From a virus (lineage: Duplodnaviria > Caudoviricetes): a DNA stretch of 64,000 bases. The stretch lies in IMG/VR virus record IMGVR_UViG_3300021387_000681, positions 27,273 through 91,272 of that record. One strand, 5' to 3'. Below are positions 6,301 to 46,955 of the stretch, piece after piece. The position numbers and the translations under genes are program-made. Each line of letters starts with the position of its first letter. The first letter of the stretch is position 1. The notes beneath the pieces were generated by a model that was given only the letters and a program-made list of their open reading frames with translations, was not told where the DNA came from and made no database searches.

Positions 6301-9300
6301 CTCACTTATTAAAGTTAGTAGAGGTAAACTATATTTAGATCCAAATAGTCGTTTATTTAAATTATATATAAATGAAATAAATAATGGTAATGATGGAGTA
6401 AAAAGATTTCAACTTAAAGATAGTGTAGAACTTACTAAACAGCTACACGAAATAGTTAAAGAATGGAAAAAAGATTATTTAGCAGAACAAAAGGAACTAC
6501 TTAAAGATAAATTAGATAGGCTTAGAGAAACTGATGGATATTATAGTGATGAAAGTAAAACTAAAGAAAATGGAAAAGAAAATAAAGTTGTTGGTGATTA
6601 TACTGAAAAAGATATAGATGAGTTCTTATTAAATGATTTAAATATGTTTATGACAATGGATGAATTCTTTGATGGAAATGGTGGTTATTATAAAAATTCT
6701 CAAGATTATTTAAAGAGAGCTAAACAAGTTCAAGCTGGTGGTGAATCATATGCTGTTGGTGATAAATTTGGTAGTGATTTTACAGGATTGCAAAATATAA
6801 AAGCTATAGGAACTCAAGATAATATTAAAATTGTTACAAAAAATGGAGTTCAATTAAATATAGGAGCTACTAATAAACCAATAGAAATAAGAAATGGATT
6901 TAGAGGGATTATAATAAAAAATACTAATAAACCTGCTGATAGATATCAATCATATGAAGATGAGATGTTTAAAATATTTAAAAATGAATTGCTTAAATTA
7001 AATAAAGTTATATCTAATCCACTGACTGAAGAACAAATAAATGATAAAGCTAGAATTAGAGCACAAAGAAGTGTATCTGCATTTAAGGAAGATACTACTG
7101 TAAATGATGCTCAATCATATATAACTCTTGATGAATTCATTAGACGCACTTGGATTGATGGAACATTTAATGATTATGCTCCATTATTTGAACGTCTTAA
7201 AGATATAGAAAAGGCATATGCTAAAGTTAAAAGTCTTAGAGAAAATGGTGATGCTGAACAACTTAAACAAGCTAGTGATGAATTAGAAAAATTAAGAAAT
7301 AATATCGATGTAGCAGCTTTAGGAGCTAGAATACAAGTTCAAAAGAATTTTTATTTTGACCATCAATTTGATGAAGTACTTAACAATTATTATAGTAGAC
7401 AAATAAAAAATGCTGAATTTGTTTTAATAAAAGGTTTACTTGGTGAAGGTAGTGATTTAGATAAACTATATGATTTAATGATTAAAAATGGGATTGACCA
7501 AGTTAATACAGCTGAGACTAGTAAAGCGTCTAATAGAACTCCATTAGTATATTGGGATAATGAAGGTAAAGTTGATGAGGCATTTGAAAAGAATTTAACT
7601 AGTGATTCTAAATATATTGAAAATTATTACTATAAATATCTTTATAAACAACAAGATAATCCTCAACATATGGAAAATGCTAGAAATAAATTTGGATTGC
7701 AAATTCAAGTTAAAATTCCTGATAATATTAGATTAGATAATGAATATGTTAGAGGTAAATTACAAAATTATTTTGATGCATATAGAACTAAAATAGATAA
7801 AACTCATAATGAAATGCTTAATGATATGGGTTATAAATATAAAGATGGTAAAATTGTAAATATATCTAATGAAAGTGAAGAACTTGATCCTTATGATTTT
7901 TATAAATTAGCATTAGAAGAAGCTACTCGATTAGGAGTTAATAGCCAATTTATGGAATATCTTGAACCAGATCCTATAACTAGATATCCTAAAATGCCTA
8001 ATTATATGAATCTTGTTTCGACTAAAATTGAAAATGTTATTCAAGCTTTATATAATAGCAGAATTACTCGTCAAAAAATGCCTGGTTGGCATGCTGTTCA
8101 AGTTACTAGTATGGGTACTGATAAAAAACTTCAATATCATCCTGAAGGATGGTATAACGCTAAGGAACATAAATATATTGATAATGATGAATATAATAAA
8201 TTAGAAGATAAAACTGGTTGGGAAAAATCAAATATGCCAATAATTGATATTCGCATACCTAGATGGGATAAATCAATACCTAGAGATATGCCTGAAGAAG
8301 AACTTATTAATAAACTTAAAGAAGCTGGACTTGACCAGCAAATTATAAATCGTATTCCAACTGAAGGTAAACAATCAATAGCTGTTGCTAGGGTTGTAGG
8401 ATTTATAGATGATATTTATGGTTCAACAATTCTTCTTCCTGATGAATGGGTTACTCAGACAGGTGCTGACTTTGATACAGATAGTGTTTATAGTATGTAT
8501 CATCATATGAGATATGATAAGAAAAAGAAAATGTTTATTAAAGAAAAATTCTTTAATCCAAATGATTATAAAGGAGAAGATAAAGAAAAAGCTTTTAGGA
8601 AACAATATACTAAATTTGTAAGAGAAGCTGTTAGAGAAAAAATTGAAAGAAAAAGAATAACTGCTGATGACCATGATGCTAAATGGAAAGAAGCATATGA
8701 TGAATTTAATAATACTCAAGAGAAAAATGAACTACAATTACAATTTGATAGTATTGAGTTTGCTAAATCTGGAAAAGTTGAAGACAGTGATACTGGAGAA
8801 TTAAATATTAAAAAGTCAGGAGTTTATTATAGATTACCTAGAGAAGCTCAAGACGTATTACGTTCTGTAAAACATGATAAATCTAAATATAATGGAGACA
8901 GAAAAGCATCGTATAAAGATAGACTTAAAAAAGAAATAGATGCTCTTATTGATTATACAAAAACTACAGGTAAATGGACTGCTTCTATTCAGAAATATAT
9001 AAATTATTGTAATGATTTACTAGATATATTTGCTAAACAAGAAGAATTGCTTTCTGATAGATTTGAACTTGAGGATGTTAAAGAACGATATAAAGAATTA
9101 ATGAAAGAAGTTGCTGGAGAAGTATCTGAAGAAAATTTTAAAGCAATACAAGCTAAAGCAGCTGAATTAGGAATTGTAGATTTTGAAACTTTTAAGACTC
9201 TCCCCGTAGAGGAAATGAATACTAATAAGGCACTTGATAATAGAGTTATTGATAGTCTTATGGAAATACTTAAAGACCCTAGTTCTCGTGAGGAAAATTA

Positions 9301-12300
9301 TGCTACTAGTAACTTCATTGATATTAGTGAAGCTATGAGAATTATGAGTGATACTATGGGTATGTCTAGTCAGTTGGCTACTATGTATGATACTAATTCA
9401 CAAATTAGAAATTTTGTTAATGCTATGAGTGGTACTAAATTAAAAGGTATGTCTGTTAATTTAGATACATTTTTATCAAAAACTTCTATGGGTAGAGCAA
9501 GAATAGGTGGAGATTTTTATAAAAAGATTAGAATAAAATATGATTTAACTAGAAAAGATGATAAAGGAAATCCAATATATGATAAAGATGCTATAAAATA
9601 TTCTTTTGGTTCTGAAAATGTAGAAGATTATGGAGATTATATAATAGTAACTCATCATAATATGGGTTGGTCTAATGATAATAAAAACGTAGCTGGAAAA
9701 ATTATAAGTATGTATAGTTCTGAAACTACTGCTCATACACTTGATGCAATGAAAGTAGGTAGTGCATATAATGTAAATGAATTTACATTTAAAGCATATA
9801 AACTTATGCCTATGATTGGTTCAGATTATTATACAACTATGGCATTTATTTATCAACCTGCAATTAGTAGACTAAATGTAGAACATGATAAATTAAATTC
9901 TGCTTATAATAATTCAAGTGGCAACGAAATTAGAAATGCCACTAAAAATATAATAAAAGAAATATTAACAGCTTTAGATGATAAAGAAGGATTAAAATTA
10001 CATGGATATTTTGATTTAATTAAATATATAAGTACTAACGAAAAAGTTAAACCTATTTTTGAGCAATTATTAGGAACAACTATAGACGGTGGCAAAAATA
10101 CATATCAAAATGTTGATAAAATATTTGATATATCTTTAATGATTGAAAGACTTGATCATGTGAAAGATTTTAATAATGAATTTAATTACAAGTTTAATGT
10201 AGATGATGGGAGAGATATAAATGACAAGCTTAGAGATGCTTGTATAGATTTAATAATGCTTTCTCAATATGATGTGTTATCGAATTTAGGAAATCATATA
10301 AATAAAATAGCCCAAGTTTCTAAACCTGAAAAAATAGGTGCTGCTCAAACTATTTATGAAACGAAAAGAATTATAAGGAGAATAAATGATATAACTGGAA
10401 GAACTGAACTTTTAAGAGATTCTGAAGGATATGTTGATAGTAGAAGTGAAGATGAAATAAAAGAAGATAAGGCTACTGCTAAATGTTTATTGGTTGATAT
10501 AAAAGATTCTGAAGGTAAATCTACTCCAGTTGGATTTTTAAATGCTTTATTTCCAACAGAATCGGATAATAAAACTATAATACCGGAAAATTCATTTTAT
10601 CCATTTATTGCACAAATGTATAAAAGTTCAACTATTGCTAGTGTTGAAATAAATTCTAGATTATTTAGATTAGAAGATGAAAAGTATTATAGAATAATTG
10701 CAGATGTTGAACAGAAAATTGGTAGAAGATTAAATCCAGATCAAGCTAAAGAATTTAAAAAATATTTAATGGGATATGTTTATACTAGAGTTCCTGCATT
10801 AGCTTTACCATTAGATATTGATGAAAATGGAAAAATTAGTAGTAAATATGGAATGGATGATTTAGATATTAGAGATGAAGAAATTAGAAGAGTAAATGGA
10901 TTTGCTACTAGGAGTGGGTCTCTCAGAATAAAAAATGTAAATAATCCTACTGAAGCTGAAATAGAAGAATATAAGAAATTAACTCCTGCTCAAAAAGTTT
11001 TATTTGTTCAAAGAAGTTTCAGAGATGGTAAAGGTATATTTGGTCTAATATCTGCTGAGTCTGCAAGACCTCAAGATGTTGTTCTTGGAAAAGGTTCTGG
11101 ACAAAGAATATCTTTTAATGATGAAGCTGTAGATATAGAAACTATGTTTGAGGAATTTACAAAGTCATTTAGTAATAAAAATCCTCTTATAAGACTTGCT
11201 GCTATAGATTTAGTTAAATATGCGTTACTTGTAGAAAATCATAATTTTGGAAAAAATAAAGTAAGTAAATTTATTATAAATGATGCGTTATATAATGGAA
11301 CAAATAATTATGGTTTAAATGTAGTTGAAGAATCTAGTAGAATACTTGATAATGAAATAGGTAAAGATTTAATATCGGATGAATTTATAAGAAGATTTAT
11401 TCGTTCTCATTCAGAAATAGCTCCTACGGTTAGAATATTCTATAAAACTAAAAATGAAATAGGAGAATCTGATGTTACTGCTGAACAAAAAGGATTAATA
11501 AAATGTTTAAAACATGCTAACGGAATAATAATAATTCCTAAAGTAGAATCTAAAGAAGGTGTAAAATTAAATGATGTTGATAATAATATACAAGCATTTA
11601 GAGAAAAAATTGAAGAATTTGGTGATAAATATATAAACTTATCATATAGAAGATATTCTGAAGATGCTATGGGCTCTTCAATAGAAAGAAGAGCAAATGT
11701 ATTATATGAAGTAAGAATGTTAGACGATGGAACTTATTTTCTGATTCCTCATACTAGACTTGATAGAAATGAACAACAAAAATATAGCTATATTAAAGAT
11801 AATAATAATAGAGAAACATATACTGATACAGATCCTGCTACAGGAATTACAAAAAATACTGCTAATAAATTCTTTATAGAAGAATATTATGAATCTATTT
11901 TTGATGAATTTAAAAGAGATATAAATCCTGTAGATGATGATGGTCAATTTGTTTCATCGGATTCTAAAACAGTATTTAGTTTAATAAAGAAACATATAGA
12001 CAATGTTAATAAAGAAATTGCTAAGAAAGTAGAAGCCCCTAGACAAATTAAAAGTGAAAATGATGCTGTAAATGATAGAAATTTATTAGATAAATTATCT
12101 ACAAATCCTGATATTAACAGGCCATATTTAAAACCTCAAGTTGATAAGTTTATAGAAGCAATAAATGGAGGAAATCCTAGAATTGCTAAATTTAGAGAAA
12201 ATAAATATGGAATAAATGGTTCTGAAAATATTCAAAATAAAGTATATGTGTATAATGTATCTCCTGATATTAGAAATATGTTCCCTGTAGGTAAATGGGT

Positions 12301-15300
12301 TATACAAAGAATTAAAGATAGAGATGGTAATAAAATGTATGTAAAAATAAAAAAATTAGAACATAGTAATATTAAGTTAGGAAGTGACAAAATAACTAAT
12401 CCTTCATTGATGGTTGCTAAAGACCAATATGATAGAGAACTTAAAACATTCTCATATGCAAAACATATGTATATAGTTAAAGTTGCTACTAAAGATGAAA
12501 TTAGAGAATTAGATAAAAAGAATGAAGTTGATGACAATACAACTCCAATTATGATGTCTGTTGCGAGAAGAATTGAAGGAAGAAATTATGATGCTACAGC
12601 TACAGATGTATTTGATAAATTTATGCCTGCTATATTAAATAAAATATCAACTGATGCAAAAAGAGATGATATTAGAGCAACTGAATTTATGGACTTTGTT
12701 CGTCAATATGGAATAAATACTAGATTAATGAGTAGTGTTGCTAAAGATGCAAAAGCTGTATATAGAAATCTAGATTACTATACTAGACAAATGGTTAATT
12801 ATTATAAAGAACAACTAGATAAATTTGAATTGTCAAACGGAGAAATATACAGTGTAGATGATAAAGAATTATATAGAAAACTTGGAGAAGCTGATATATT
12901 AGACCAACAAAGTGATTATAATAGATTAATAAAACTTTTATTAGATGTTAAAAATATGGGAGAATATTATTCTATGATTGGTCACTTAGAAGGTCAAGAT
13001 GAAATTAATAAATATGTTGATAGTATGTTAGCAAATGTTAAGTCTTTAGCTGCTCATAAAATATATACTGCATTTGACCATTTATTTAATATTTATTTTG
13101 CTCAATTTAGTACTGACCCGCTAATAAAAGAAGGTATTATAAAACTTCGTGAACAATTTGGAGATTTAAATGCTTTAGATGCATCATTGACTGATGTTAC
13201 TCATATACGTTCAAAAGAAGTTCAAGTTGTTACTAAGATAATTAATGATACTTTGGCTAGAGTTGAACGAATAACTGCTCCTAGAGCCCAAGCTGAATTT
13301 GAAAGTAAATATGATAATATTGTTAAAAAAGCATCTACTCCTATTGATTTTACAAAAATAATAAATAAGGATGGATATTTTGTCAAAGACTACACTGAAG
13401 ATTTCATAAAAGAAAAAAGAAGAATAGATAATGAATTAGATGCTTATGTTGATGAAAATAAAAGAGACAGTGAAGGTTATTATAGAAAATGGATAGAAAA
13501 AGAAAGGTTTTATATAAATAATGTAAATCGCGAAGTTGTATCTCAATACTATAAAGATAAAGTTGATAACTTAGAAAGAGCATTAAATGAAGGAGGAAAT
13601 ATATTTATAGAATATAAGAGATTATCTAGACAGTTATATGATACAGTATATGATTATAATACTGATGAAGAAAGTAAAAGAAGAGCAAATATACAAGCTC
13701 AAATAAATGAATTACTTGAGGAATATAATGAAGAAGCCGGAGCTAAAAAATCTGATAGTATAATACTTAAAATTCGTGCTGTACAAGAATTTAGAAAACG
13801 TGAGATGGAAATTAATAAAAAGTATTATGATTATCAAGCATATGATGGATGGAAAAGTGATGTTGAACATTATACTAATATAATAAAAACTTATGATGAA
13901 ACTCATACATTACAACCTCATGATATTAAAATGAAAAATGCTGAATATGCTGAAGCTTGGAATTGGATACATAGCAATACTTATAGAACTATTTCTCAAG
14001 AAACTAAGGCTACTATAAATAATTTGCGTAGAAGTGTATATGGAGATGCAGATTATAAAGGTAGTGTTGCAAGAAGATTAGCTAAAGAAAGAGAAGGAGT
14101 TCTTGGTGAAAATAACAGAATGGATGCTAGAAACTTTACTGATGATGATATAAGAAAAATTAAACAAGACTTTGTAGCTAAACATTCTAGATATAGTACA
14201 GTTGATGGAACGAATAAATCGCTATTAAAATATGTTCCAGAGCAACCAATTCTAACCGATGCTTTTTGGAATGAGTTTAATAAGTTATATAATCCAAATA
14301 TATCTAGAGCTGATAAACATAGAACTCATCTAATTATAAATAAAATAATAGAGCCATATTTTGATAAGAATACAGGTAAATTAGATACCATTAGTTTAGT
14401 AAAATATTTGGAAAATCATTTAGATGTATATAATGAACTCAAAAACGCTTATGAATCATTGAGAGCTAGAAAAGGTGGAGGTAAACAAAGTAGAGCGTTT
14501 ATTGAACATTTTAAGAATACTATGGAAATGGCTTATAATAAACAGGCTTATGATGAAGAAAAAGCTATATTAGATGATGGATATAATAATATTTCCTCTA
14601 CGGGGAAAAAGTCAATTAGCAAAAAAGCATATAATATTTGGATGGATTTATTTACAGTTCTTGATAAAGATAATTCATTAGTTCCTAGATTTGAAGTATT
14701 TGGATATTTTAAAATTAAAGATGAAAAATACATAAACAAAGCAAAAACTGAAGCTAGAGATAAACTTAGAAGAAATGTTAGATACACTCCTAATGAATAC
14801 TATTACGATGCTAGAGCAAAAGCTATTGCTGAAGGTAAATATGATCAATGGTTTGAATTAAATCATGTATATAATACAGATACTGGTAATTGGGAGCCTC
14901 TTAGAATATGGACACAGATGGAACTAAGAGAAGATAATGAATTTGGTGATGAATATCAATATGTTCCTACTTTTGATAATTCTAGAAAATTAGTTAAAGA
15001 TGAATTTAAAAATAAAAATTGGAAGAAAGGACAACTCAGATATAATTCAACTACAGGAAATTATAATAACGGAATACAATTAACAGCTGATGAACAAAGA
15101 ATGAAAGAATTTCTTCAAGAAACTGTTAAAAGTGCGGCTTATAATATTGCTACAAGGAGAGCTGCTGAATCAGGTATGGCACCAAGAATGATTGCTGCTG
15201 AACCATGGAATACTGTTAAGATATTTAAAGAGATTTTCAATACTGTAGGATTAACAATAGACAAAAGTTGGAAACTTCCAAATGATAATAGAGGAATGGT

Positions 15301-17560
15301 AACATACAATGATGATAGACAAGTAGAAAATGGAATGCTTCAACTTATAAAGACTAAAGGTTGGGAAAAGGAAAAGAAAATAGAACAGCAAACTGCTGCT
15401 CAAACTGATGAACAATATAGACAATATGTTAGAAGTATTCAAGCTGAAAATGAAGAAATAAGAAAACGAAACTTAGAACGAGAAAGAGCTGTTAGAAGTA
15501 ATGATTGGAGAAAAGTATTTAGTGAATTTGTAAAAGCTAGTACTTTATTTAAAGGAAAAGAACTTGCTAAAAATACTGCTCATATATTATTAGAAGAATT
15601 AAATATGAATAATGCTTATGCAATAAGTAGTAGAGGAGGTATATCTAGAAATAGTAAAGAGTCTGCTTTAGATTACAACGCTCCTAATACTGAAATGCAA
15701 AGACATATTTATGATGTTGTTAATAATTGGGTCAAAAGAAGAATATTTGATGATTATCATGATAGAAGTAAAGCTCGTTCATTTGCAAATAGTATTCAAC
15801 AGTTTACTAGTGCTAAATTTATGATTGGTAATATGTGGTCAGGTATAACCAATGTTACTATGGGTTGGACTAATATGGCTATGGAAACTTTTGCGGGTGA
15901 ATATTTTGAAAAGAAAGATTGCTGGGATGCAAGTTGGGAATATGCTGGTGGAGCTTTGAGTTATGTTCAAGGATTAATTGGTGGAGAACGTACTAGATTT
16001 ACAAATAAAGCTGATGCATTAATTCATTATTTTAATGTGATAGAATATGACAGATTATTAGAACGTAGAGATAATGAAAATATTGATGAATATTCTCAAA
16101 GACTTCGCAAAATACTTTATCTTAATCAATCTGGAGGTGAACATTTAATGCAAAATAGCGTTTTACTTGCTGCACTTAAAGGAACTAGAATTTGGTTTGA
16201 TAGAAGTAGAAATAAAGCTCAATTAGTTTCTAAACAACAATTAAGATATGAATATGAACACAAAGCACTAAGTAAAGTTCTAGATCGTTTTCCTGTTTAT
16301 AAACAAGCATTTGAAGCATTTAAGCAATCTATTAGTGAAAATAAATATGAACTATTTCAATATGATAAACGTAAGAAAGATTTAGCTTCAGAATTTATTA
16401 GATTAATATATCATAATGATGTTCCAGGTCATACTATAGAAAAAACTATAGGAGAACAAATAAAGAACGCATTTATTGAAGAACGTAAGAAAGCTGTAGA
16501 AGAAGCAGATGCTAAATTTGAAACTTTAAATACAGTATATGACCAAATTCAATTTATTGATGGCAAAATAGAAATAAAAAATCAAACTGATAATGATGGA
16601 AATATAATAACTCATTCTGGAGATGTTGGTTATTTAACTGAGCAACTAGTAGGAGATATGGCAAATAGAGTTATATCAATTAATAAAAAGATTCATGGTG
16701 TATATGATAAAGATGGAGCTGCTATGTTGGAACGTAAATGGTATGGAAGTCTTTTAATGCAATATCATAAGCATATTTGGCCTGGTATTATGAAACATTG
16801 GCGAAATAGAGGATATTGGAATGAATATAGAGGTACTAGAGAAAGAGGTATGTATACTGATTTATTTTCTTATTTCAACCATAGTTTGCATTTAGTTGAT
16901 GAATGGAAAAAATCTGCTAAAGTTCCTGAAAATGGATTTGTGGATAATTTTGTTAATTCATTAAAATCTCTTGGAACTATAGGTTCAGAACTTAAACTTA
17001 ATTGGCAATTAATGCCTACTGAACAACGAAATAATATGGCTAGAATATTTGGTGAACTTGCTGGATTAAGTGCTGTATTCTTAACAGGCATGCTTGTGTA
17101 TGCATTATATGATGATGAAGAAGAAGTACATAATAGTGGATTTGCATCTAATGCTATATATTTGGCTGATAGATTAGCATCTGAAATTATAATGTATAAT
17201 GGCTATGGTACATGGCAAGAAGTACAAACTCTTTGGAGTAATCCTGTTGCAGGTGGAGCTTTCTTTGCGGATGCTTTAAAAGCTGCTACTCTTACAATGG
17301 AATTTATGATAGATCCAGACTTTGATAGTACTTATGATAAAGGTCCATATAAAGGTATGTCTAAATGGGAAGTTCTTGCTAGACGTAACTTCTGGCTTAC
17401 TAGACTTGGACTTAGATTTACTACTATTGGTGCTAATAATAAGTATTATAGAATTGGAAATAAATCTATTATTCTTAATGCTGCTAAAAAAGCTGTTGGA
17501 TTTGATAATCCTAATGATGAAGATACAGATTTTAATACTGGTACACGTTTTGAACAATAA
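3371..17560 (+). CDS. Giant virion-associated DNA-dependent RNA polymerase (two-barrel, crAss type) with a long C-terminal cargo region
   Basis: 4729 aa; catalytic GADFDTD (DFDTD at nt 8468-8482) preceded by NRIPTEGKQS; DAQSY and QIKNAE motifs; hydrophobic helix near the C-terminus. Confidence 0.9.
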   Translation: MADCITQGTNYGEKIDNVLDEISQQVDVFHGDADKLVLEAQLTSGEFLKELTKFVRNNKDVAEIFDSRNVPYNNFRKITISDLEKIIQVNQVKKFIKDYYIDSHPSVNNSTTDGIEFDTVGFTSGKIKNLAYKNVAQTILRTHVENMSRPIESRRDKDGVMAETVQRLTDEFFDNIVQIKLNNKGKKLDRIPTLVSAYKQATSSFNSLASAIKKNIDEINRLRELGKNFPTKFKEFTQEQLSEFNKYKNKIAELERTNIDLKNQLTQKYNTRFILGYSIIQNVADSGNSVDIRAKNWANMIYKLRSDYYGFIRRSLSIGGYQELLKEYSDTLDETDYKEFQDNNIIIDEEYFKIDDSRDTTTKNWNDAIPRDFNSLVKTENELYLRAIPKLNSVIEIKDNNRLIDYDTNNDLGINEFMDYDVVKNNIISNVDISSREAFLDSLMKRATSVPELAGLSKIYYDCIDDPILLNRLMKQFEYHLYEKTRVSTLNGNSINRSNNRSNNLNTLYWDLTNQVRFSKYHAYDSYNVNRLAPLVRLKIINGKLNDSKLFDKSNIKEGNTVFDDGVQLIKDMMLAVFNNFDTRIIDNYLNEVKTEAEKGERLGKLATSVNRLYDEIKDWANIYADEAAKVKASQQLKVSGQDLANKSLYEIFTDEGETETELYEIDQDRINQANQRIESTVLSICQMISEYSISKNEYTSIGVEGNRSSDIIKNSWISRFNDTMQYGTKEDPNKGVHDLINTFRKGDPDSNQYAYNPLLYGSFLYNDSGTVNRDSIVPGMFNKNTNKLHKNVRDFLVPRLFDGVDTGSKYRNVTYNSMSGNDYLITKFMNFHYPMYSLEGGIHHQLVTGERLANYFLRVPSDATHNYTVQYCRLSDIQIESALTSHLKQELCNFIANLTNVFEFNKTKGVYEITTDKNKINRLFKFAHLSKDGNIVENKQLAGNFFNFIKFFNTGGKDYNDIIKRTLSLYGDGTIDSLIKVSRGKLYLDPNSRLFKLYINEINNGNDGVKRFQLKDSVELTKQLHEIVKEWKKDYLAEQKELLKDKLDRLRETDGYYSDESKTKENGKENKVVGDYTEKDIDEFLLNDLNMFMTMDEFFDGNGGYYKNSQDYLKRAKQVQAGGESYAVGDKFGSDFTGLQNIKAIGTQDNIKIVTKNGVQLNIGATNKPIEIRNGFRGIIIKNTNKPADRYQSYEDEMFKIFKNELLKLNKVISNPLTEEQINDKARIRAQRSVSAFKEDTTVNDAQSYITLDEFIRRTWIDGTFNDYAPLFERLKDIEKAYAKVKSLRENGDAEQLKQASDELEKLRNNIDVAALGARIQVQKNFYFDHQFDEVLNNYYSRQIKNAEFVLIKGLLGEGSDLDKLYDLMIKNGIDQVNTAETSKASNRTPLVYWDNEGKVDEAFEKNLTSDSKYIENYYYKYLYKQQDNPQHMENARNKFGLQIQVKIPDNIRLDNEYVRGKLQNYFDAYRTKIDKTHNEMLNDMGYKYKDGKIVNISNESEELDPYDFYKLALEEATRLGVNSQFMEYLEPDPITRYPKMPNYMNLVSTKIENVIQALYNSRITRQKMPGWHAVQVTSMGTDKKLQYHPEGWYNAKEHKYIDNDEYNKLEDKTGWEKSNMPIIDIRIPRWDKSIPRDMPEEELINKLKEAGLDQQIINRIPTEGKQSIAVARVVGFIDDIYGSTILLPDEWVTQTGADFDTDSVYSMYHHMRYDKKKKMFIKEKFFNPNDYKGEDKEKAFRKQYTKFVREAVREKIERKRITADDHDAKWKEAYDEFNNTQEKNELQLQFDSIEFAKSGKVEDSDTGELNIKKSGVYYRLPREAQDVLRSVKHDKSKYNGDRKASYKDRLKKEIDALIDYTKTTGKWTASIQKYINYCNDLLDIFAKQEELLSDRFELEDVKERYKELMKEVAGEVSEENFKAIQAKAAELGIVDFETFKTLPVEEMNTNKALDNRVIDSLMEILKDPSSREENYATSNFIDISEAMRIMSDTMGMSSQLATMYDTNSQIRNFVNAMSGTKLKGMSVNLDTFLSKTSMGRARIGGDFYKKIRIKYDLTRKDDKGNPIYDKDAIKYSFGSENVEDYGDYIIVTHHNMGWSNDNKNVAGKIISMYSSETTAHTLDAMKVGSAYNVNEFTFKAYKLMPMIGSDYYTTMAFIYQPAISRLNVEHDKLNSAYNNSSGNEIRNATKNIIKEILTALDDKEGLKLHGYFDLIKYISTNEKVKPIFEQLLGTTIDGGKNTYQNVDKIFDISLMIERLDHVKDFNNEFNYKFNVDDGRDINDKLRDACIDLIMLSQYDVLSNLGNHINKIAQVSKPEKIGAAQTIYETKRIIRRINDITGRTELLRDSEGYVDSRSEDEIKEDKATAKCLLVDIKDSEGKSTPVGFLNALFPTESDNKTIIPENSFYPFIAQMYKSSTIASVEINSRLFRLEDEKYYRIIADVEQKIGRRLNPDQAKEFKKYLMGYVYTRVPALALPLDIDENGKISSKYGMDDLDIRDEEIRRVNGFATRSGSLRIKNVNNPTEAEIEEYKKLTPAQKVLFVQRSFRDGKGIFGLISAESARPQDVVLGKGSGQRISFNDEAVDIETMFEEFTKSFSNKNPLIRLAAIDLVKYALLVENHNFGKNKVSKFIINDALYNGTNNYGLNVVEESSRILDNEIGKDLISDEFIRRFIRSHSEIAPTVRIFYKTKNEIGESDVTAEQKGLIKCLKHANGIIIIPKVESKEGVKLNDVDNNIQAFREKIEEFGDKYINLSYRRYSEDAMGSSIERRANVLYEVRMLDDGTYFLIPHTRLDRNEQQKYSYIKDNNNRETYTDTDPATGITKNTANKFFIEEYYESIFDEFKRDINPVDDDGQFVSSDSKTVFSLIKKHIDNVNKEIAKKVEAPRQIKSENDAVNDRNLLDKLSTNPDINRPYLKPQVDKFIEAINGGNPRIAKFRENKYGINGSENIQNKVYVYNVSPDIRNMFPVGKWVIQRIKDRDGNKMYVKIKKLEHSNIKLGSDKITNPSLMVAKDQYDRELKTFSYAKHMYIVKVATKDEIRELDKKNEVDDNTTPIMMSVARRIEGRNYDATATDVFDKFMPAILNKISTDAKRDDIRATEFMDFVRQYGINTRLMSSVAKDAKAVYRNLDYYTRQMVNYYKEQLDKFELSNGEIYSVDDKELYRKLGEADILDQQSDYNRLIKLLLDVKNMGEYYSMIGHLEGQDEINKYVDSMLANVKSLAAHKIYTAFDHLFNIYFAQFSTDPLIKEGIIKLREQFGDLNALDASLTDVTHIRSKEVQVVTKIINDTLARVERITAPRAQAEFESKYDNIVKKASTPIDFTKIINKDGYFVKDYTEDFIKEKRRIDNELDAYVDENKRDSEGYYRKWIEKERFYINNVNREVVSQYYKDKVDNLERALNEGGNIFIEYKRLSRQLYDTVYDYNTDEESKRRANIQAQINELLEEYNEEAGAKKSDSIILKIRAVQEFRKREMEINKKYYDYQAYDGWKSDVEHYTNIIKTYDETHTLQPHDIKMKNAEYAEAWNWIHSNTYRTISQETKATINNLRRSVYGDADYKGSVARRLAKEREGVLGENNRMDARNFTDDDIRKIKQDFVAKHSRYSTVDGTNKSLLKYVPEQPILTDAFWNEFNKLYNPNISRADKHRTHLIINKIIEPYFDKNTGKLDTISLVKYLENHLDVYNELKNAYESLRARKGGGKQSRAFIEHFKNTMEMAYNKQAYDEEKAILDDGYNNISSTGKKSISKKAYNIWMDLFTVLDKDNSLVPRFEVFGYFKIKDEKYINKAKTEARDKLRRNVRYTPNEYYYDARAKAIAEGKYDQWFELNHVYNTDTGNWEPLRIWTQMELREDNEFGDEYQYVPTFDNSRKLVKDEFKNKNWKKGQLRYNSTTGNYNNGIQLTADEQRMKEFLQETVKSAAYNIATRRAAESGMAPRMIAAEPWNTVKIFKEIFNTVGLTIDKSWKLPNDNRGMVTYNDDRQVENGMLQLIKTKGWEKEKKIEQQTAAQTDEQYRQYVRSIQAENEEIRKRNLERERAVRSNDWRKVFSEFVKASTLFKGKELAKNTAHILLEELNMNNAYAISSRGGISRNSKESALDYNAPNTEMQRHIYDVVNNWVKRRIFDDYHDRSKARSFANSIQQFTSAKFMIGNMWSGITNVTMGWTNMAMETFAGEYFEKKDCWDASWEYAGGALSYVQGLIGGERTRFTNKADALIHYFNVIEYDRLLERRDNENIDEYSQRLRKILYLNQSGGEHLMQNSVLLAALKGTRIWFDRSRNKAQLVSKQQLRYEYEHKALSKVLDRFPVYKQAFEAFKQSISENKYELFQYDKRKKDLASEFIRLIYHNDVPGHTIEKTIGEQIKNAFIEERKKAVEEADAKFETLNTVYDQIQFIDGKIEIKNQTDNDGNIITHSGDVGYLTEQLVGDMANRVISINKKIHGVYDKDGAAMLERKWYGSLLMQYHKHIWPGIMKHWRNRGYWNEYRGTRERGMYTDLFSYFNHSLHLVDEWKKSAKVPENGFVDNFVNSLKSLGTIGSELKLNWQLMPTEQRNNMARIFGELAGLSAVFLTGMLVYALYDDEEEVHNSGFASNAIYLADRLASEIIMYNGYGTWQEVQTLWSNPVAGGAFFADALKAATLTMEFMIDPDFDSTYDKGPYKGMSKWEVLARRNFWLTRLGLRFTTIGANNKYYRIGNKSIILNAAKKAVGFDNPNDEDTDFNTGTRFEQ
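6274..6288 (-). repeat. Dispersed CCCCGTA motif copy 2 (in RNAP CDS)
   Basis: TTCCCTCTACGGGGA. Confidence 0.9.
9201..9214 (+). repeat. Dispersed CCCCGTA motif copy 3 (in RNAP CDS)
   Basis: TCCCCGTAGAGGAA. Confidence 0.9.
14592..14608 (-). repeat. Dispersed CCCCGTA motif copy 4 (in RNAP CDS)
   Basis: TTTCCTCTACGGGGAAA. Confidence 0.9.
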
Positions 17561-18078: not shown

Positions 18079-18093
18079 TTCCACTACGGGGAA
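18079..18093 (-). repeat. Dispersed CCCCGTA motif copy 5 (intergenic)
   Basis: TTCCACTACGGGGAA. Confidence 0.9.
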
Positions 18094-18109
18094 AACATTA
18101 ATTAAGCTC

Positions 18110-18123
18110 TCCCCGTAGATGGA
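18110..18123 (+). repeat. Dispersed CCCCGTA motif copy 6 (intergenic, inverted relative to copy 5)
   Basis: TCCCCGTAGATGGA. Confidence 0.9.
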
Positions 18124-41983: not shown

Positions 41984-42130
41984 AATAATTCACAAATTTT
42001 TTATGTCATATTGTGAATTTGGTATTATTGTAGTAAGAACTTTATCAAAATTTGCAATTTCGGCAGTTATATTATAATTATTATAAATTATTTGTTATCA
42101 TCTACGTAATAGCAGTAACAAATATATTTA

Positions 42131-42185: not shown

Positions 42186-42830
42186 TTAGAGCATGACGGC
42201 TTGAACTGCAATGAGAAGAGCTTGTTTACCAGTCGGTCCGAATTGTATATTAGTAATATGACTAATATATTGGTCATGATCGAATACTGTAGCCTCAGGA
42301 TCTTCTTGTTGACTGAAAGGATTAATATATTCTGTTTCAGCAGGAACAAGTTCTTGCAGAAACTCTACGTTAGCACCACCCAATAGTAGCACAATCCTCT
42401 TCAATTTCTCTTCCGTCGGAAGCTCTACTGCTTCCTTAATGAGAGTAGCAGCGAATACTCCCATTTCGGTTTTTTCTTTGAGAACTGCGTTCACTCCGAT
42501 ATGAGTTGTAAAGATGATGTTACTCATTTTCTCTTCGTAATCTCCATCTTCATTCTCAATAAAACGAGGAACTTTACGGTCAAGAGTAAAAGAAATCATA
42601 GCATAGTCTTGATTAAGACTATTTATCTTTTTTGTAACCGTTACATTCTTAATACGTGCCTTATATTTCTTGCAACCTTTAGCAACAAGATTTTTAATGA
42701 CAGCGTCTACACTCACTTCTCCACCAGTAGTAACATCTTCTGTTTCTATTACTACATTTGCAGGTTCTTCAGCTGGAGATTCAATATTCTCAACAACTGG
42801 TTCATCAACGTTTGTTCTGTTACGTCCCAT
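42186..42830 (-). CDS. Early hypothetical protein (paralog of 45070-45696)
   Basis: 214 aa; shares a motif pattern with the 45070 ORF. Confidence 0.75.
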   Translation of the reverse strand: MGRNRTNVDEPVVENIESPAEEPANVVIETEDVTTGGEVSVDAVIKNLVAKGCKKYKARIKNVTVTKKINSLNQDYAMISFTLDRKVPRFIENEDGDYEEKMSNIIFTTHIGVNAVLKEKTEMGVFAATLIKEAVELPTEEKLKRIVLLLGGANVEFLQELVPAETEYINPFSQQEDPEATVFDHDQYISHITNIQFGPTGKQALLIAVQAVML

Positions 42831-42984
42831 AATTCAATACGTATTAAAAATTAATAATAAATTTATTTCCAACTGCTATATCTCGAGTTGGCAGAGTAAT
42901 TAGAATATTATTACGGACAATTAAACTCCTCCTGTTAAAATTTTAGGACGTTTGTCGGCAATAATATTTATAGGTTCTATAAGT

Positions 42985-43179
42985 TTATTTATTAGGTAAT
43001 AAACTTTTATCTTTAAGTATGATATATGGCTTACCTATAAACTCAGTAGCTTCAACTACATTAAAATTGTCTGAGGTAATATACATCTCTGTATCAAACT
43101 GAACTTCTAATTCTACTTGAACATTACCAAGTTTAGAACGAGCTTCTTTTAGTTTTTTTATCAGTTTATTTACTTTCAT
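42985..43179 (-). CDS. Hypothetical protein
   Basis: MKVNKLIKKL..G..V pattern common in small phage proteins. Confidence 0.6.
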   Translation of the reverse strand: MKVNKLIKKLKEARSKLGNVQVELEVQFDTEMYITSDNFNVVEATEFIGKPYIILKDKSLLPNK

Positions 43180-43448
43180 ACTAATACTTCTTCATGTTTA
43201 GCTGATGGAATGTTAATAGTACCTGTAAATAGTTTATTACCAATAATTATTTCAATTTTTGGCATAACTCCATCATAAATAATAATATGAAAATCATCAA
43301 CTTTTCTTAAGTCTACGCTATTAGGAAGTATCCTGTCAAAACAAAGTCTTTTATTTCCAAATTGTATAGTATTGGAATAATTTGGATTAATTTTAACTTT
43401 GCAATCAATACTTCCAAGTGTTGCGGTCACAAATGTAATTGTTTTCAT
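43176..43448 (-). CDS. Hypothetical protein
   Basis: Start placed at MKTITF, just after the upstream stop. Confidence 0.6.
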   Translation of the reverse strand: MKTITFVTATLGSIDCKVKINPNYSNTIQFGNKRLCFDRILPNSVDLRKVDDFHIIIYDGVMPKIEIIIGNKLFTGTINIPSAKHEEVLV

Positions 43449-43449
43449 A

Positions 43450-43902
43450 TTAATCATAATAATGGTTCGGTTCGATGTCTGTCCAAGCAAATTCACCACT
43501 TGTTTTCTTTGTACGGATTCCCATATATGGATATACGTCAGATTTGCTTGAACTACTATCGTAATAGTCGTAATCGCCGGTGTTCATGAAGTTAATCATA
43601 TCATCGGTAGTTTTAAAGTAACGGCGAATTTGAGTATCATATTCAACTACTGCATAGAGATTAGCTTGGTTTACACCCACAACAATACCCTCAGTCGGTT
43701 TACTATTAACATTAACGATTACCCGTTCCCCGATAATAGGCTCATACATTGGTACTCCCAATAAATAAGCCTTAACTTCATCAGTTAAGCAACTAAAGAA
43801 CTCCACAAAACGTTCCTTGTTTACTAGCTCAAAGGAGTTTTGCAACAAGATTTTGTGCATTTCCTTTACCACATCCGAATTTTGTTTTACTTTTCTTGCC
43901 AT
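43450..43902 (-). CDS. Early hypothetical protein
   Basis: Start placed at MARKVK, downstream of the 44041 motif. Confidence 0.7.
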   Translation of the reverse strand: MARKVKQNSDVVKEMHKILLQNSFELVNKERFVEFFSCLTDEVKAYLLGVPMYEPIIGERVIVNVNSKPTEGIVVGVNQANLYAVVEYDTQIRRYFKTTDDMINFMNTGDYDYYDSSSSKSDVYPYMGIRTKKTSGEFAWTDIEPNHYYD

Positions 43903-44040
43903 AATCTTATCATATTTTAAAGGCAACAACTCCTGCTTTATTTACATCACGATTAGTAGCAGCAGTATCTACTAATCGATATAGAGCTGATTTGGCTTTA
44001 GATTTCCAAAGCGCAATCCCACCAACTCAAATTCACTTAT

Positions 44041-44060
44041 ATCTATTTAATTGAGGTCTT
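44041..44060 (-). promoter_or_regulatory. Candidate phage-RNAP early promoter, copy C
   Basis: AAGACCTCAATTAAATAGAT immediately after a terminator. Confidence 0.65.
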
Positions 44061-44067
44061 GTGTGCC

Positions 44068-44109
44068 AAAAAGCATTGCCACTGCCAATATTAGCAGCAG
44101 CAACACTTT
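44068..44109 (-). terminator. Intrinsic terminator
   Basis: AAAGTGTTGCTGCTGC...GCAGTGGCAATGCTTTTT. Confidence 0.75.
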
Positions 44110-44121
44110 ATACATTATGAT

Positions 44122-44571
44122 TTAGTCCGTAAAATAATTTTCTTCTAATGGAAATTTTCTCCTAGTCCACCATTCAGAACCATCATATTCATCTCTTTCG
44201 AGCCAAGTATTATCTTTGAATACAATTATACCAAAGAGTTCTTGACCACCATAACCGTCATCATAATTTATTTCAGATAAAGTACGCAAGAACTTAAGTT
44301 CATCCTCTTCAGTTCTATCGCTTCTTAAAATAGCTCGGATTATATATTCTTCTCCCCAATCATTATCCTTTTTAACTTTGGCAAACTTAATAGTTTTTAC
44401 CCATTCAATACAGCATGGTGCATCATAATGAGGAGTAATCTTATATTTTCCTAAAGAACACTGATTTGTATTATCCTCAACCTCATAATTAGAAATACTA
44501 CCAGTTTTCACAAGTTCATCATAAGCATCTTGCTCTATGACATCACCAAGTAATTCAAATAATGCATTCAT
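44122..44571 (-). CDS. Conserved phage hypothetical protein
   Basis: YDDGYGGQELFG.I.FKD.TWLER.EYDGSEWW. Confidence 0.75.
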   Translation of the reverse strand: MNALFELLGDVIEQDAYDELVKTGSISNYEVEDNTNQCSLGKYKITPHYDAPCCIEWVKTIKFAKVKKDNDWGEEYIIRAILRSDRTEEDELKFLRTLSEINYDDGYGGQELFGIIVFKDNTWLERDEYDGSEWWTRRKFPLEENYFTD

Positions 44572-44580
44572 AATAAGTTT

Positions 44581-44907
44581 TTATTTTAAATTATTATCTT
44601 CTTTTTGTTTTTTACTTAAATAACGTCTTTGAGGCTTACCATTCTTATCAGTTTTACCTGTAAGATAATAATAACCTCCTTTTTTCCCTCTATAAAGGTC
44701 ATACGTTTTCTTAGTACCATCTTTCTTTTCGACAGTAATAATACCTACTTTTTCCGCTTTAGCAGTAGTAGTATCACGCTCTACAATAGTAGCGTGAATT
44801 TGTGGAACAGTAGCGGCTTTAGCTTCACAAGCTCCTACGGTAGCTGCTGCTATAAATAGCGCAACTATCATAACCCAAATAAGGTTTTCTTTTGTTTTGT
44901 TGCTCAT
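44581..44907 (-). CDS. Exported or membrane-anchored basic protein
   Basis: Signal-like hydrophobic N-terminus (..AVGAC/AKA); C-terminal RGKKGGYYY...RRYL. Confidence 0.7.
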   Translation of the reverse strand: MSNKTKENLIWVMIVALFIAAATVGACEAKAATVPQIHATIVERDTTTAKAEKVGIITVEKKDGTKKTYDLYRGKKGGYYYLTGKTDKNGKPQRRYLSKKQKEDNNLK

Positions 44908-44991
44908 AGTTATGTTAGTTTAATAGTTATTATTAAGTCCATTTAGAAGTCCATAGTGATTTCTATAGTCCTCTTCATCAATATCATCTAT

Positions 44992-45011
44992 ATCTATTTG
45001 ATTGAGGTCTT
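44992..45011 (-). promoter_or_regulatory. Candidate phage-RNAP early promoter, copy B
   Basis: AAGACCTCAATCAAATAGAT immediately after a terminator. Confidence 0.65.
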
Positions 45012-45018
45012 ATTGTGC

Positions 45019-45057
45019 AAAAAAATATCCCCCAACACTAAGCTGAGGGATATTTTT
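45019..45057 (-). terminator. Intrinsic terminator
   Basis: AAAAATATCCC...GGGATATTTTTTT. Confidence 0.75.
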
Positions 45058-45069
45058 AATCGTGTACGC

Positions 45070-45696
45070 TTATGCTTGAGCAGCTTCAGCAGCAAGACGA
45101 TTTCTACGTCTTGTCTCGGCAGCTCGACGAGCAGCGATTTGACGAGGAGTCAATTCAGGCTCAGCAGGAGCTTCAGCAGACTCTTCAAGAGCAGGAGCTT
45201 CAGTAGGTTCTTCATGAGCCTCAGTAGAAGTTTCAAACTCCTCTGCCATAGCAGCCATAGCTGCTTTAGCAGCAGCCATAGCTTTAGCAGCGTTACGCTC
45301 AGCTCTACGCTCTCTCGATTTAGCATCAAGAACAGCCATAATACTATCCTCAGCAAGCATTTCAATACCTGCATCAGACAGCATTAGCTTGTCAATGCTG
45401 AAGTTGGTGAACTCCTCATCATCACTAAGAGCAACATTAATAGTTGCTTTAGCACCACGAAGAGCAGCGGCTAGTTGTGTAGGCGTAAGCCGCATAATGT
45501 CCATAGGAACATTAGCAGCAAACGCTTCAATTAGCTGACTCGGGAAGATAAATATGTCTTTCGACATGATTTCTTCGCCATTCTTCAACTGCGAAATTTC
45601 ATCCTTGAGATGCAATTTCACCTTGAATCCACCCTTCTTAAGAGTTACAACACAAGCGTAAACAATTTCTGCAAGGATAATAATAGTATTTTCCAT
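45070..45696 (-). CDS. First early protein; Ala/Glu-rich linker and basic RQIAARRAAETRRRNR tail
   Basis: 208 aa; GC-richer codon usage; first ORF after motif copy A. Confidence 0.8.
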   Translation of the reverse strand: MENTIIILAEIVYACVVTLKKGGFKVKLHLKDEISQLKNGEEIMSKDIFIFPSQLIEAFAANVPMDIMRLTPTQLAAALRGAKATINVALSDDEEFTNFSIDKLMLSDAGIEMLAEDSIMAVLDAKSRERRAERNAAKAMAAAKAAMAAMAEEFETSTEAHEEPTEAPALEESAEAPAEPELTPRQIAARRAAETRRRNRLAAEAAQA

Positions 45697-46050
45697 ACAG
45701 TAAAACGGTGGCTGAACACCTGTATTATCCAGTTACTCCAACATTGGAATAACTTCGTCAGCAATTGTAGGATTAATACTTACATCATCAACACCTACAA
45801 TAGAATGATGTAACACTTGTATTCATACACTTTGAGCATAAGCTGGAGCCGTATGTACTCCCGTGCCGTTACTATCGTAACTCACGCCGCAGCAGAACTA
45901 AGCGGTTTGTCATCTACACGATTGTAGAACAAGTACAACTACAATCGTATCAACAATGAGACGTAGATTCATATCTAGAACTATGACATCATCATTGCTA
46001 CAAAGCACTGAGTCACGTCTAAATAATCCTCTACAGTCAATAGCACTTTA

Positions 46051-46070
46051 ATCTATTTTATTGAGGTCTT
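46051..46070 (-). promoter_or_regulatory. Candidate phage-RNAP early promoter, copy A
   Basis: AAGACCTCAATAAAATAGAT at the head of the minus-strand block. Confidence 0.65.
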
Positions 46071-46375
46071 CTAAAACACATTGACGGGGGTAGTGGTCTC
46101 TAGCTTCAGCAACCGGGGGACTTCTAGTGCTACACCCCCTCTTACAATCATGTACCAAATTTACACTATAACCTCAAGTTCACTTATACAAAAACATTCA
46201 ATAACATTAATACTAAAACATTCAACTCAACTTACATAAAAATCTTTAATATCTTATATATTATCACTTATTTAATCATATACAATACAACATTGTTCGT
46301 CTTTAGTATAATAATTATATAATTATATTTTTATATCTATTAATAAATTAATATCTATAAAAATATAATTAATAA

Positions 46376-46419
46376 TAACGCGCGTATGCGTATATACATT
46401 ATTAACGCACATATGCGTA
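46376..46419. repeat. Two 17-bp imperfect-palindrome direct repeats in AT-rich DNA
   Basis: TAACGCGCGTATGCGTA (46376) and TAACGCACATATGCGTA (46403). Confidence 0.7.
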
Positions 46420-46472
46420 CATTATATAATATATAATATATAATAAGGTGTATTAAAATTAATATTTTTTAA

Positions 46473-46504
46473 CTTGTATTTGAACTATAAATGCACTATA
46501 TTTG
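46473..46504 (+). promoter_or_regulatory. Bacteroidota primary-sigma promoter for the + strand block
   Basis: CTTG-N20-TATATTTG. Confidence 0.65.
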
Positions 46505-46526
46505 CACTGTAAATTATAAACAAGTT

Positions 46527-46955
46527 ATGGATATTAGAGTAGATGAAGCTATTAAGAATGGTGTTTATTTAGATAAAGAAACTAATACACTAGTTGATAA
46601 TACAGAAAGTATTAATTTAGTTATTAATAGTAATAATTATCTTAAAACTATTAAAGTTACAGATATTATTGCTACTCTATTAGAACTTAATGATAGTGAA
46701 GCTGCTGTTTATACTAGTTTAATTGAAGCTAGACTTGCAAATAAAAATATGCTAAATGTTGCAGAAAGTGTAGCTAGAATTGCTAAAGTTTATGATAAAT
46801 CTGAAAGATCTATTTACAAAGCTATTAAAAGTCTTAATGATAAAAGAATTATTACTTATAGAGGTGTTAACGCCATTCAATTAAATCGAGGTTATGATTT
46901 CATTAGAAGTGTAATGAATGAACCTAAGTTTATTATAATACGTTTAACAAATTAA
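46527..46955 (+). CDS. RepL-like winged-helix DNA-binding protein
   Basis: IAKVYDKSERSIYKAIKSLNDKRII HTH; start moved to MDIRV because the promoter overlaps the upstream ATG region. Confidence 0.65.
   Translation: MDIRVDEAIKNGVYLDKETNTLVDNTESINLVINSNNYLKTIKVTDIIATLLELNDSEAAVYTSLIEARLANKNMLNVAESVARIAKVYDKSERSIYKAIKSLNDKRIITYRGVNAIQLNRGYDFIRSVMNEPKFIIIRLTN

Follow-up and report, generated by a model that had tools for sequence, protein, structure and literature searches.

Three genome-private boxes at the head of the replication arm of a crAss-like phage are candidate early promoters

Introduction

Among the viruses of the human gut, crAss-like phages are the most abundant; they begin infection by injecting an RNA polymerase (RNAP) that is related to the polymerases of eukaryotic RNA interference. 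In phi14:2, one of the crAss-like phages, transcription of the replicative module is carried out by the virion RNAP and is rifampicin-resistant, while a tripartite motif belongs to the middle/late genes read by the host RNAP and lies upstream of the RNAP, IHF, portal and transfer RNA (tRNA) genes, not at the head of the replicative arm (10.1101/2020.03.07.982082). No promoter of a crAss virion RNAP is described in the literature searched. Here, we analyze a short sequence, referred to as the box, that occurs three times at the head of the replication arm in a 64,000-nucleotide (nt) stretch of crAss-like phage DNA (the window: bases 27273-91272 of the 91,272-base virus record IMGVR_UViG_3300021387_000681, with a completeness estimate of 97%), and we ask which polymerase might read it.

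The primary-sigma promoters of Bacteroidetes are reported (Bayley et al. 2000) to consist of a -33 TTTG and a -7 TAnnTTTG. In T7, three strong consensus sigma-70 host promoters, A1-A3, stand at the leading end of the early region and are followed by a terminator, and in coliphage N4 the promoters are small DNA hairpins (short stem, 3-nt loop) read by a T7-like single-subunit enzyme. The N4 early promoters P1-P3 are read by the injected virion RNAP (PMC4496689). The Thermus phage P23-45 has a two-barrel virion RNAP, gp96, which uses a strongly conserved motif that is clustered at the pre-early genes, ahead of the genes that enter first, and kept in related phages (PMC10770324). In crAss001, a small early operon fires in less than 10 min and the replication genes follow at 10-30 min (PMC8375218; review PMC10136315).

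The boxes resemble the N4 promoters in that about three near-identical copies head the putative earliest genes and occur nowhere else, in a phage with an injected giant RNAP; they differ in being linear and composed of two blocks, with no hairpin supported, and in that the enzyme is of the two-barrel crAss type. Like the P23-45 motif, they cluster at the first genes and persist in relatives with a virion RNAP, but the P23-45 motif has been tied to its enzyme by start-site mapping and chromatin immunoprecipitation sequencing, whereas the boxes are described here from sequence.

Results

The box, AAGACCTCAATnAAATAGAT, is present in three exact copies on the minus strand (44041-44060, 44992-45011 and 46051-46070), at spacings of 1059 and 951 nt. 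The search pattern AAGACCTCAATNAAATAGAT matched the window exactly three times, each time with 0 mismatches and on the minus strand; no further copy was found in the window at up to 3 mismatches (chance expectation 0.12), and three matches were reached in 0 of 100 shuffles. The whole 91,272-base record holds only these three copies, and a scan with a 34-nt consensus found nothing else above background. A preliminary description of this DNA had reported near-identical minus-strand copies at 44041, 44992 and 46051, about 1 kilobase (kb) apart and absent from the rest of the window, and all of this is borne out. The 20 bp that it gave as the length of the box form an exact core, but alignment of the flanks shows that similarity among the three copies spans ~45 nt (AAGACCTCAAT-n-AAATAGAT-aTAaaGTG-nnaTTGA-...-GAGGAT), with a conserved extension past the core that reads ...ATAaGTGnnaTTGA...GAGGAT. 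In each window box, the first C of the 5' block and the opening T of TTG are 26 nt apart.

Each box precedes a gene and has the same orientation as that gene. Box 1 heads the entire minus-strand block, and boxes 2 and 3 each lie 7 nt after a hairpin with a T run (Table 1), as had been claimed for one box heading the block and two boxes following intrinsic terminators. No coding gene lies upstream of box 1, whose last bases overlap the stop codon of a possible 36-codon, TTG-started frame (46048-46158); the description of all copies as intergenic needs this qualification. The reported lack of TAnnTTTG holds for the exact motif, which is found neither in nor beside any window box, but all three boxes hold a near-miss of the host -7 element, TGnnWTTG, with G at the A of the host motif. 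An N4-type hairpin promoter was considered and rejected, the three window boxes folding no better than shuffles (z-scores -0.57, -1.31 and -0.81). An inverted repeat, CCTCAAT...ATTGA, is present in the window and in one terminase-related locus (L006) and absent from three others (L027, L029 and L031).

Relatives were gathered by terminase and comprise 54 loci with 67-84% identity (labelled L), and two complete relatives of 93-97 kb were also used (G001 and G002). In the 54 loci, the window box gave only chance matches at up to 4 mismatches. A seed-free repeat search returned boxes as a top family in L006, L007, L018, L027 and L029, with three or four copies in the syntenic place and on the same strand. 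These share a common plan with the window boxes: (A)CCTCA(T/A)A as the 5' block, a middle rich in A that often includes ACATAA, and (T)TTG(G/C/A) on the 3' side. A collection seeded with CCT[CA]A, which fixes positions 1-5, then comprised 32 boxes in 12 non-redundant genomes, the window's included. All 32 are on the replication strand, close to the head of the arm; the relatives with boxes have 2-5 copies of their own version in the same place and on the same strand. The copies are near-identical within a genome, with a constant distance from the first C to TTG (23-24, 26 or 29 nt), yet the box differs in a relative with an 84% identical terminase. Thus, the motif discovery in syntenic regions of relatives that had been proposed as a check yields genome-specific versions of the box at the same place and strand.

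In both complete relatives, all copies are confined to 3 kb, with none elsewhere; G001 has 3 scanned copies plus a box-like copy directly after a GC-rich element (see below), and G002 has 4 scanned copies plus one of different spacing. Several relatives have tandem pairs 26-36 nt apart. A strong hairpin precedes most non-first boxes in the relatives as in the window, and many of the relatives' boxes are without an upstream T run. The shortest distance from the first C to the next ATG is 38-39 nt, and an ATG can follow the 3' block at only 13 nt, which would place any start site within ~13 nt after TTG. Exact TAnnTTTG is present in none of the 32 boxes, the three window boxes among them; CCTCA(T/A)A occupies the place of the -33 TTTG, and TCCG, TTCG or ATCG stands where TTTG would stand in several relatives. 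No relative was found to share the exact window box. The one match of the exact 20-mer in IMG/VR lies inside an open reading frame (ORF) for a coiled coil and was rejected as chance, and the 27 single matches from a metagenome scan with the same 20-mer were rejected because their flanks are unlike those of the window.

Named phages carry boxes of their own; a megablast of the box region against named phages gave no match. crAss002 (MN917146) has exactly three perfect ACCAAATGACTTTAAACATATTG 23-mers on the replication strand (92469-92491, 92071-92093 and 92035-92057), including a tandem pair, and no further copies at up to 3 mismatches; its box has CCAAAT instead of CCTCA. The prototype crAssphage (BK010471) has exactly three copies of CTCATTATCAACATTAAATA-nn-TTG (121-145, 366-390 and 1296-1320), the second of which is 64 nt upstream of the SSB gene, and a RepL-like gene adjoins the boxes. 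The presence of boxes in both phages indicates that having about three private boxes head the replication arm is a family trait rather than a peculiarity of one genome. A quick repeat search of the early region of crAss001 (L072) found no obvious equivalent box, only a 5-copy repeat by the TROVE gene.

Three other repeats were noted in these named phages. The crAss001 repeat consists of five TTGAAGTAAnTnT...ACAC copies with a tRNA-like segment (L072, 6170-6765) in an ORF-less 900 nt beside the early TROVE-domain gene, and may represent Y-RNA-like or tRNA-like genes. The prototype crAssphage has three GTCTGTGAAGATAGTGCTA copies in the gp08-gp09 gap (BK010471, 4282-4590), a repeat distinct from its early boxes, and crAss002 has two TATTTTTCGTGAGTATATTTT copies (23/24 identical) on the minus strand at about 92579 and 92746 of MN917146, in the divergent region upstream of the GC-rich element.

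Judged by its terminase, the window phage belongs to the Intestiviridae (crAss family), as do its nearest named relatives cr3_1 (74% terminase identity), the prototype crAssphage Carjivirus communis (61%) and crAss002 (55%). The replication arm is the minus-strand block from 46070 to 17647 and contains small ORFs without assigned function, three tRNAs, a Dda-like helicase, DNA polymerase, primase, ligase and thymidylate synthase. The opposite arm, on the plus strand from 46491, begins with an HTH_36 protein and continues with exonuclease, terminase, portal and major capsid protein. The layout is the same as that of phi14:2, whose replicative arm is an early one that the virion RNAP reads. The window also encodes a fusion protein of 4729 amino acids (aa). 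In a comparison of its central 1000 residues, crAss002 gave a match to its 'putative RNAP catalytic subunit' (3e-96), and another crAssphage one to its 'putative RNAP'; by its DFDTD motif and crAss002 homology the protein contains a polymerase of the crAss two-barrel type, not a T7-like single-subunit enzyme of the N4 class. The protein had no match in a PDB sequence search, and its two halves had none in PHROGs. The premise of the preliminary description thus holds: a crAss-type phage with a virion RNAP has boxes heading the arm that is early in phi14:2. Among the products of the putative early genes, a 208-aa protein used as query found zero relatives, and an Rfam scan of 39-47 kb found three tRNAs only.

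Host-type promoters are present in the same genome. Exact TAnnTTTG occurs at nine places in correctly oriented intergenic gaps of the window; the minus-strand motifs are at 42126, 41987, 41960, 32524 and 25403, and four of these five read TATATTTG. Host-type late promoters of the relatives tolerate TAnnATTG variants. The arm therefore splits into a head of ~4 kb, with the three boxes and seven small ORFs of unknown function, and the replication genes with host-type promoters, matching the order of expression in crAss001. The boxes are like Bacteroidetes primary-sigma promoters in overall geometry and in having a TTG-containing block near the start codon, but differ in having CCTCA for the -33 TTTG and no exact -7 element; in addition, the 5' block is the better conserved part of the boxes, and the reverse is true of host promoters. 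One further exact -7 motif, TAAATTTG, is found on the upstream side of box 1, where it may represent a host-type promoter for the whole early arm. At its alignment columns the relatives have nAnnTTTGG, and 8-10 nt separate the motif from GA(G/T)TGAGAGGGG, the conserved sequence with which the GC-rich element starts.

The GC-rich element ends in ACTACCCCCGTCAA in the window and in (A)TACCCCCGTCA(A/T)(G) across genomes. The first box follows it at 2-26 nt in the window, in most of its 14 carriers among the relatives and in both the prototype crAssphage and crAss002; the first recognizable box is farther downstream in L011, L018 and L041. We rejected it as a structured RNA: RNAalifold predicted 0 consensus pairs on its own (minus) strand and a 4-bp stem on the complementary strand, and single-sequence z-scores ranged from +0.8 to -2.8, mostly above -1.7 (window, -0.6). 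One frame of the element reads ...(T/S)PPxVEVRLEYPRQ, with AGA, CGT or CGA as the Arg codon. A GGAGG-type Shine-Dalgarno-like sequence stands 7-8 nt before an ATG at the element in L008, L011, L012, L018 and L043, and the other relatives are without a start codon; in crAssphage, the element overlaps the end of the annotated gp01 in a different frame. A micro-ORF, a leader peptide and a protein-binding site are candidates for what it represents.

Downstream of box 1, an ORF-less leader is predicted to be structured (Table 1); aligned with L006, L007 and L009, it gave no clear nucleotide conservation. It recalls the early non-coding RNAs that are abundant in phi14:2 and come from long intergenic stretches where its replicative arm begins. 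Between the arms, the divergent region is filled with AT-rich tandem repeats (window 46305-46490; L006 4428-4495; L007 4457-4586). Elsewhere in the window (18079-18123) lies an inverted pair, CTACGGGGAA / TCCCCGTAG, 16 nt apart, with an ACGGGG core that resembles the reverse complement of the ACCCCCGT element; L020 has CTACGGGGGAAC repeats.

Table 1 Features around the boxes in the window and positions of the GC-rich element in other genomes
Feature	Position	Strand	Remark
Box 1, extended (~45 nt)	46026..46070	-	Heads the minus-strand replication/early arm
Box 2, extended	44968..45011	-	100 nt upstream of ATG at 44907
Box 3, extended	44016..44060	-	Upstream of ATG at 43902
Terminator-like hairpin, 16-bp stem + U7	45019..45057	-	Ends 7 nt before box 2; -21.5 kcal/mol, z -6.8
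Terminator-like hairpin + T run	44067..44109	-	Ends 7 nt before box 3; -23.8 kcal/mol, z -4.6
ORF-less leader (~330 nt), box 1 to first long ORF, predicted structured	45697..46025	-	Folded as 45697-46040: -106.4 kcal/mol, z -3.35 vs shuffles
GC-rich element (~65 nt)	46081..46145	-	11 nt upstream of box 1; conserved family-wide, one copy per genome
Exact host-type -7 motif TAAATTTG	46156..46163	-	Upstream of GC-rich element; ~90 nt upstream of box 1
First exact TAnnTTTG downstream of boxes	42119..42126	-	~4 kb past box 1
Putative early genes, seven small ORFs of 64-214 aa without recognizable function	42186..45696	-
HTH_36 DNA-binding protein	46491..46955	+	First gene of opposite arm; candidate regulator or initiator beside boxes
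4729-aa fusion protein with crAss-type virion RNAP	3371..17560	+	GADFDTD near residue 1702
GC-rich element in relatives	L008 1688; L011 3085; L012 4350; L018 2425; L027 3346; L029 2025; L031 2556; L041 3642; L043 3761; L050 2092; L054 2829
GC-rich element in named phages	BK010471 about 60-100; MN917146 about 92490-92560

Discussion

Taken together, the position and strand of the boxes, the terminator-box-gene layout, their confinement to the head of the arm and the retention of this arrangement in relatives point to promoters of a special class that serve the first genes in the replication arm, and we consider it probable that the boxes are a phage-specific class of early promoters. This class would be distinct from host promoters, as exact TAnnTTTG is found in 0 of the 32 boxes and nine times in correctly oriented gaps of the window. 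Copies that are uniform within a genome and different between relatives suggest a phage-encoded recognizer, and pairs of polymerase and promoter of the T7/T3/SP6 type likewise have copies that are uniform within a phage and differ between phages. The virion RNAP is the obvious candidate for the reader, and the window genome encodes it. Also in its favor are the transcription of this arm by the virion RNAP in phi14:2 and the use of a conserved motif at the first genes by the two-barrel virion RNAP of P23-45. That the injected virion RNAP reads the boxes as core promoters of the earliest genes is the reading we favor, with a confidence that stays a little below even.

In our model of early transcription, each unit would run from a box through one to four small genes to a terminator. 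The 5' block (A)CCTCA(A/T) would lie near -33 and the TTG-containing 3' block near -10 to -7, with the start expected within ~13 nt after TTG. The injected crAss-type virion RNAP would recognize the box right after entry of the DNA, and the host polymerase would take over at the exact TAnnTTTG promoters from ~4 kb downstream. The notion in the preliminary description that the boxes define the early regulon is plausible in this light, exact host-type promoters appearing downstream of the boxes first at 42126. What we observe is the anatomy of the boxes, their number, their confinement to the head of the arm and the retention of this arrangement across the family with genome-private sequence; that they act as promoters, where transcription would start and which polymerase would read them are inferred.

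Several observations weigh against reading by the virion RNAP, and most of them bear on its closest rival, in which the host RNAP reads the boxes, either with an alternative sigma or with the primary sigma and a phage activator or appropriator that binds CCTCA instead of the -33 TTTG. Two blocks 23-29 nt apart are the hallmark geometry of sigma-dependent bacterial promoters; the TTG block is at the distance of a -7 element with an ATG as close as 13 nt beyond, and near-consensus 3' blocks are enriched (at most 1 mismatch from TAnnTTTG in 12 of the 32 boxes, compared with ~19% by chance), and host-type late promoters of relatives also accept TAnnATTG. The arm could already be driven by the exact TAAATTTG that stands ~90 nt upstream of box 1. 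Among crAss-like phages, early 5' ends have been mapped in phi14:2 alone, and no common motif was found upstream of its early transcripts (10.1101/2020.03.07.982082), so that a strong motif may mark something other than the virion enzyme. The 5' block is also not universal, as the CCAAAT of crAss002 indicates, and its invariance in the seeded counts is partly by construction, the seed fixing positions 1-5 in the collection; the seed-free search is the independent evidence for it. Finally, no crAss002 transcript map was found in the literature searched, and sequence alone cannot decide between the virion RNAP and a redirected host polymerase. Nevertheless, the exact -7 element is missing from all 32 boxes though exact copies are in use elsewhere in the same genome, all three window copies have G in place of the A equivalent to the base-flipped -11 position, and TCCG, TTCG or ATCG replaces TTTG in several relatives. 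An unchanging host sigma would also not be expected to go with a box that differs between close relatives yet is uniform in each genome. We therefore regard reading by the host RNAP as rather unlikely, if a serious contender. For the virion-RNAP promoter proposed in the preliminary description, this means that the boxes do behave as an early promoter class in a genome that encodes a crAss virion RNAP, but that their geometry fits the host polymerase with a phage factor about equally.

It is improbable, in our estimate, that the boxes instead serve a DNA-binding protein of the phage, for instance the adjacent HTH_36/RepL-like protein, as operators or iteron-like sites that control early-gene shut-off or replication. 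An HTH gene directly flanks the region and a RepL-like gene lies beside the boxes of the prototype crAssphage, tandem copies 26-36 nt apart are found in several relatives and in crAss002, and uniform, genome-private copies would fit a phage-encoded binding protein as well. Iterons, however, are direct repeats clustered within a few hundred bases and uninterrupted by genes; some relatives have tandem pairs, but in the window 951 and 1059 nt separate the copies, and genes and terminators intervene. Moreover, each copy stands before a gene of the same orientation, which suits promoters better than an origin, and no dyad symmetry is common to the relatives. Still less do we expect that the boxes act in RNA or in termination, as a processing or stabilizing 5' element or as part of a composite virion-RNAP terminator like the 26-nt motif of P23-45. 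Boxes 2 and 3 do abut terminators, and the P23-45 virion RNAP has a sequence-specific terminator motif near the pre-early genes (PMC10770324). But there is nothing coding upstream of box 1 to terminate, the upstream T run is missing at many of the relatives' boxes, and the boxes have no significant fold (z -0.6 to -1.3).

The preliminary description had also proposed that the boxes may help to pull the leading genome end into the cell. This did not find support: no physical DNA end is placed at the boxes, and terminal-repeat records are cut elsewhere. The two relatives' records that IMG/VR classes as terminal-repeat have different cut sites, 4 kb and tens of kb away. Contigs of several relatives start or stop 4.4-5.5 kb upstream of terminase, about at the AT-rich divergent region; in a region of such low complexity, rich in tandem repeats, these may be assembly breaks. 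The boxes differ from T7 A1-A3, which match the host consensus from which the boxes deviate and which stand at the leading end, a position not established for the boxes.

Returning to reading by the virion RNAP, it is tempting to speculate, with somewhat more reserve than for that reading itself, that the boxes are the promoter of the two-barrel enzyme, with the CTCA(T/A) block as a specificity determinant that co-evolves with it and the ATACCCCCGTCAAG element as the site of first engagement, and that about three such promoters launch infection throughout the Intestiviridae, the prototype crAssphage included. Because the prototype crAssphage and crAss002 each have exactly three sharply defined boxes, the question of the virion-RNAP promoter becomes directly testable. 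If it is the host enzyme that reads the boxes, they would represent a non-canonical class of Bacteroides promoters that is reprogrammed by a phage factor.

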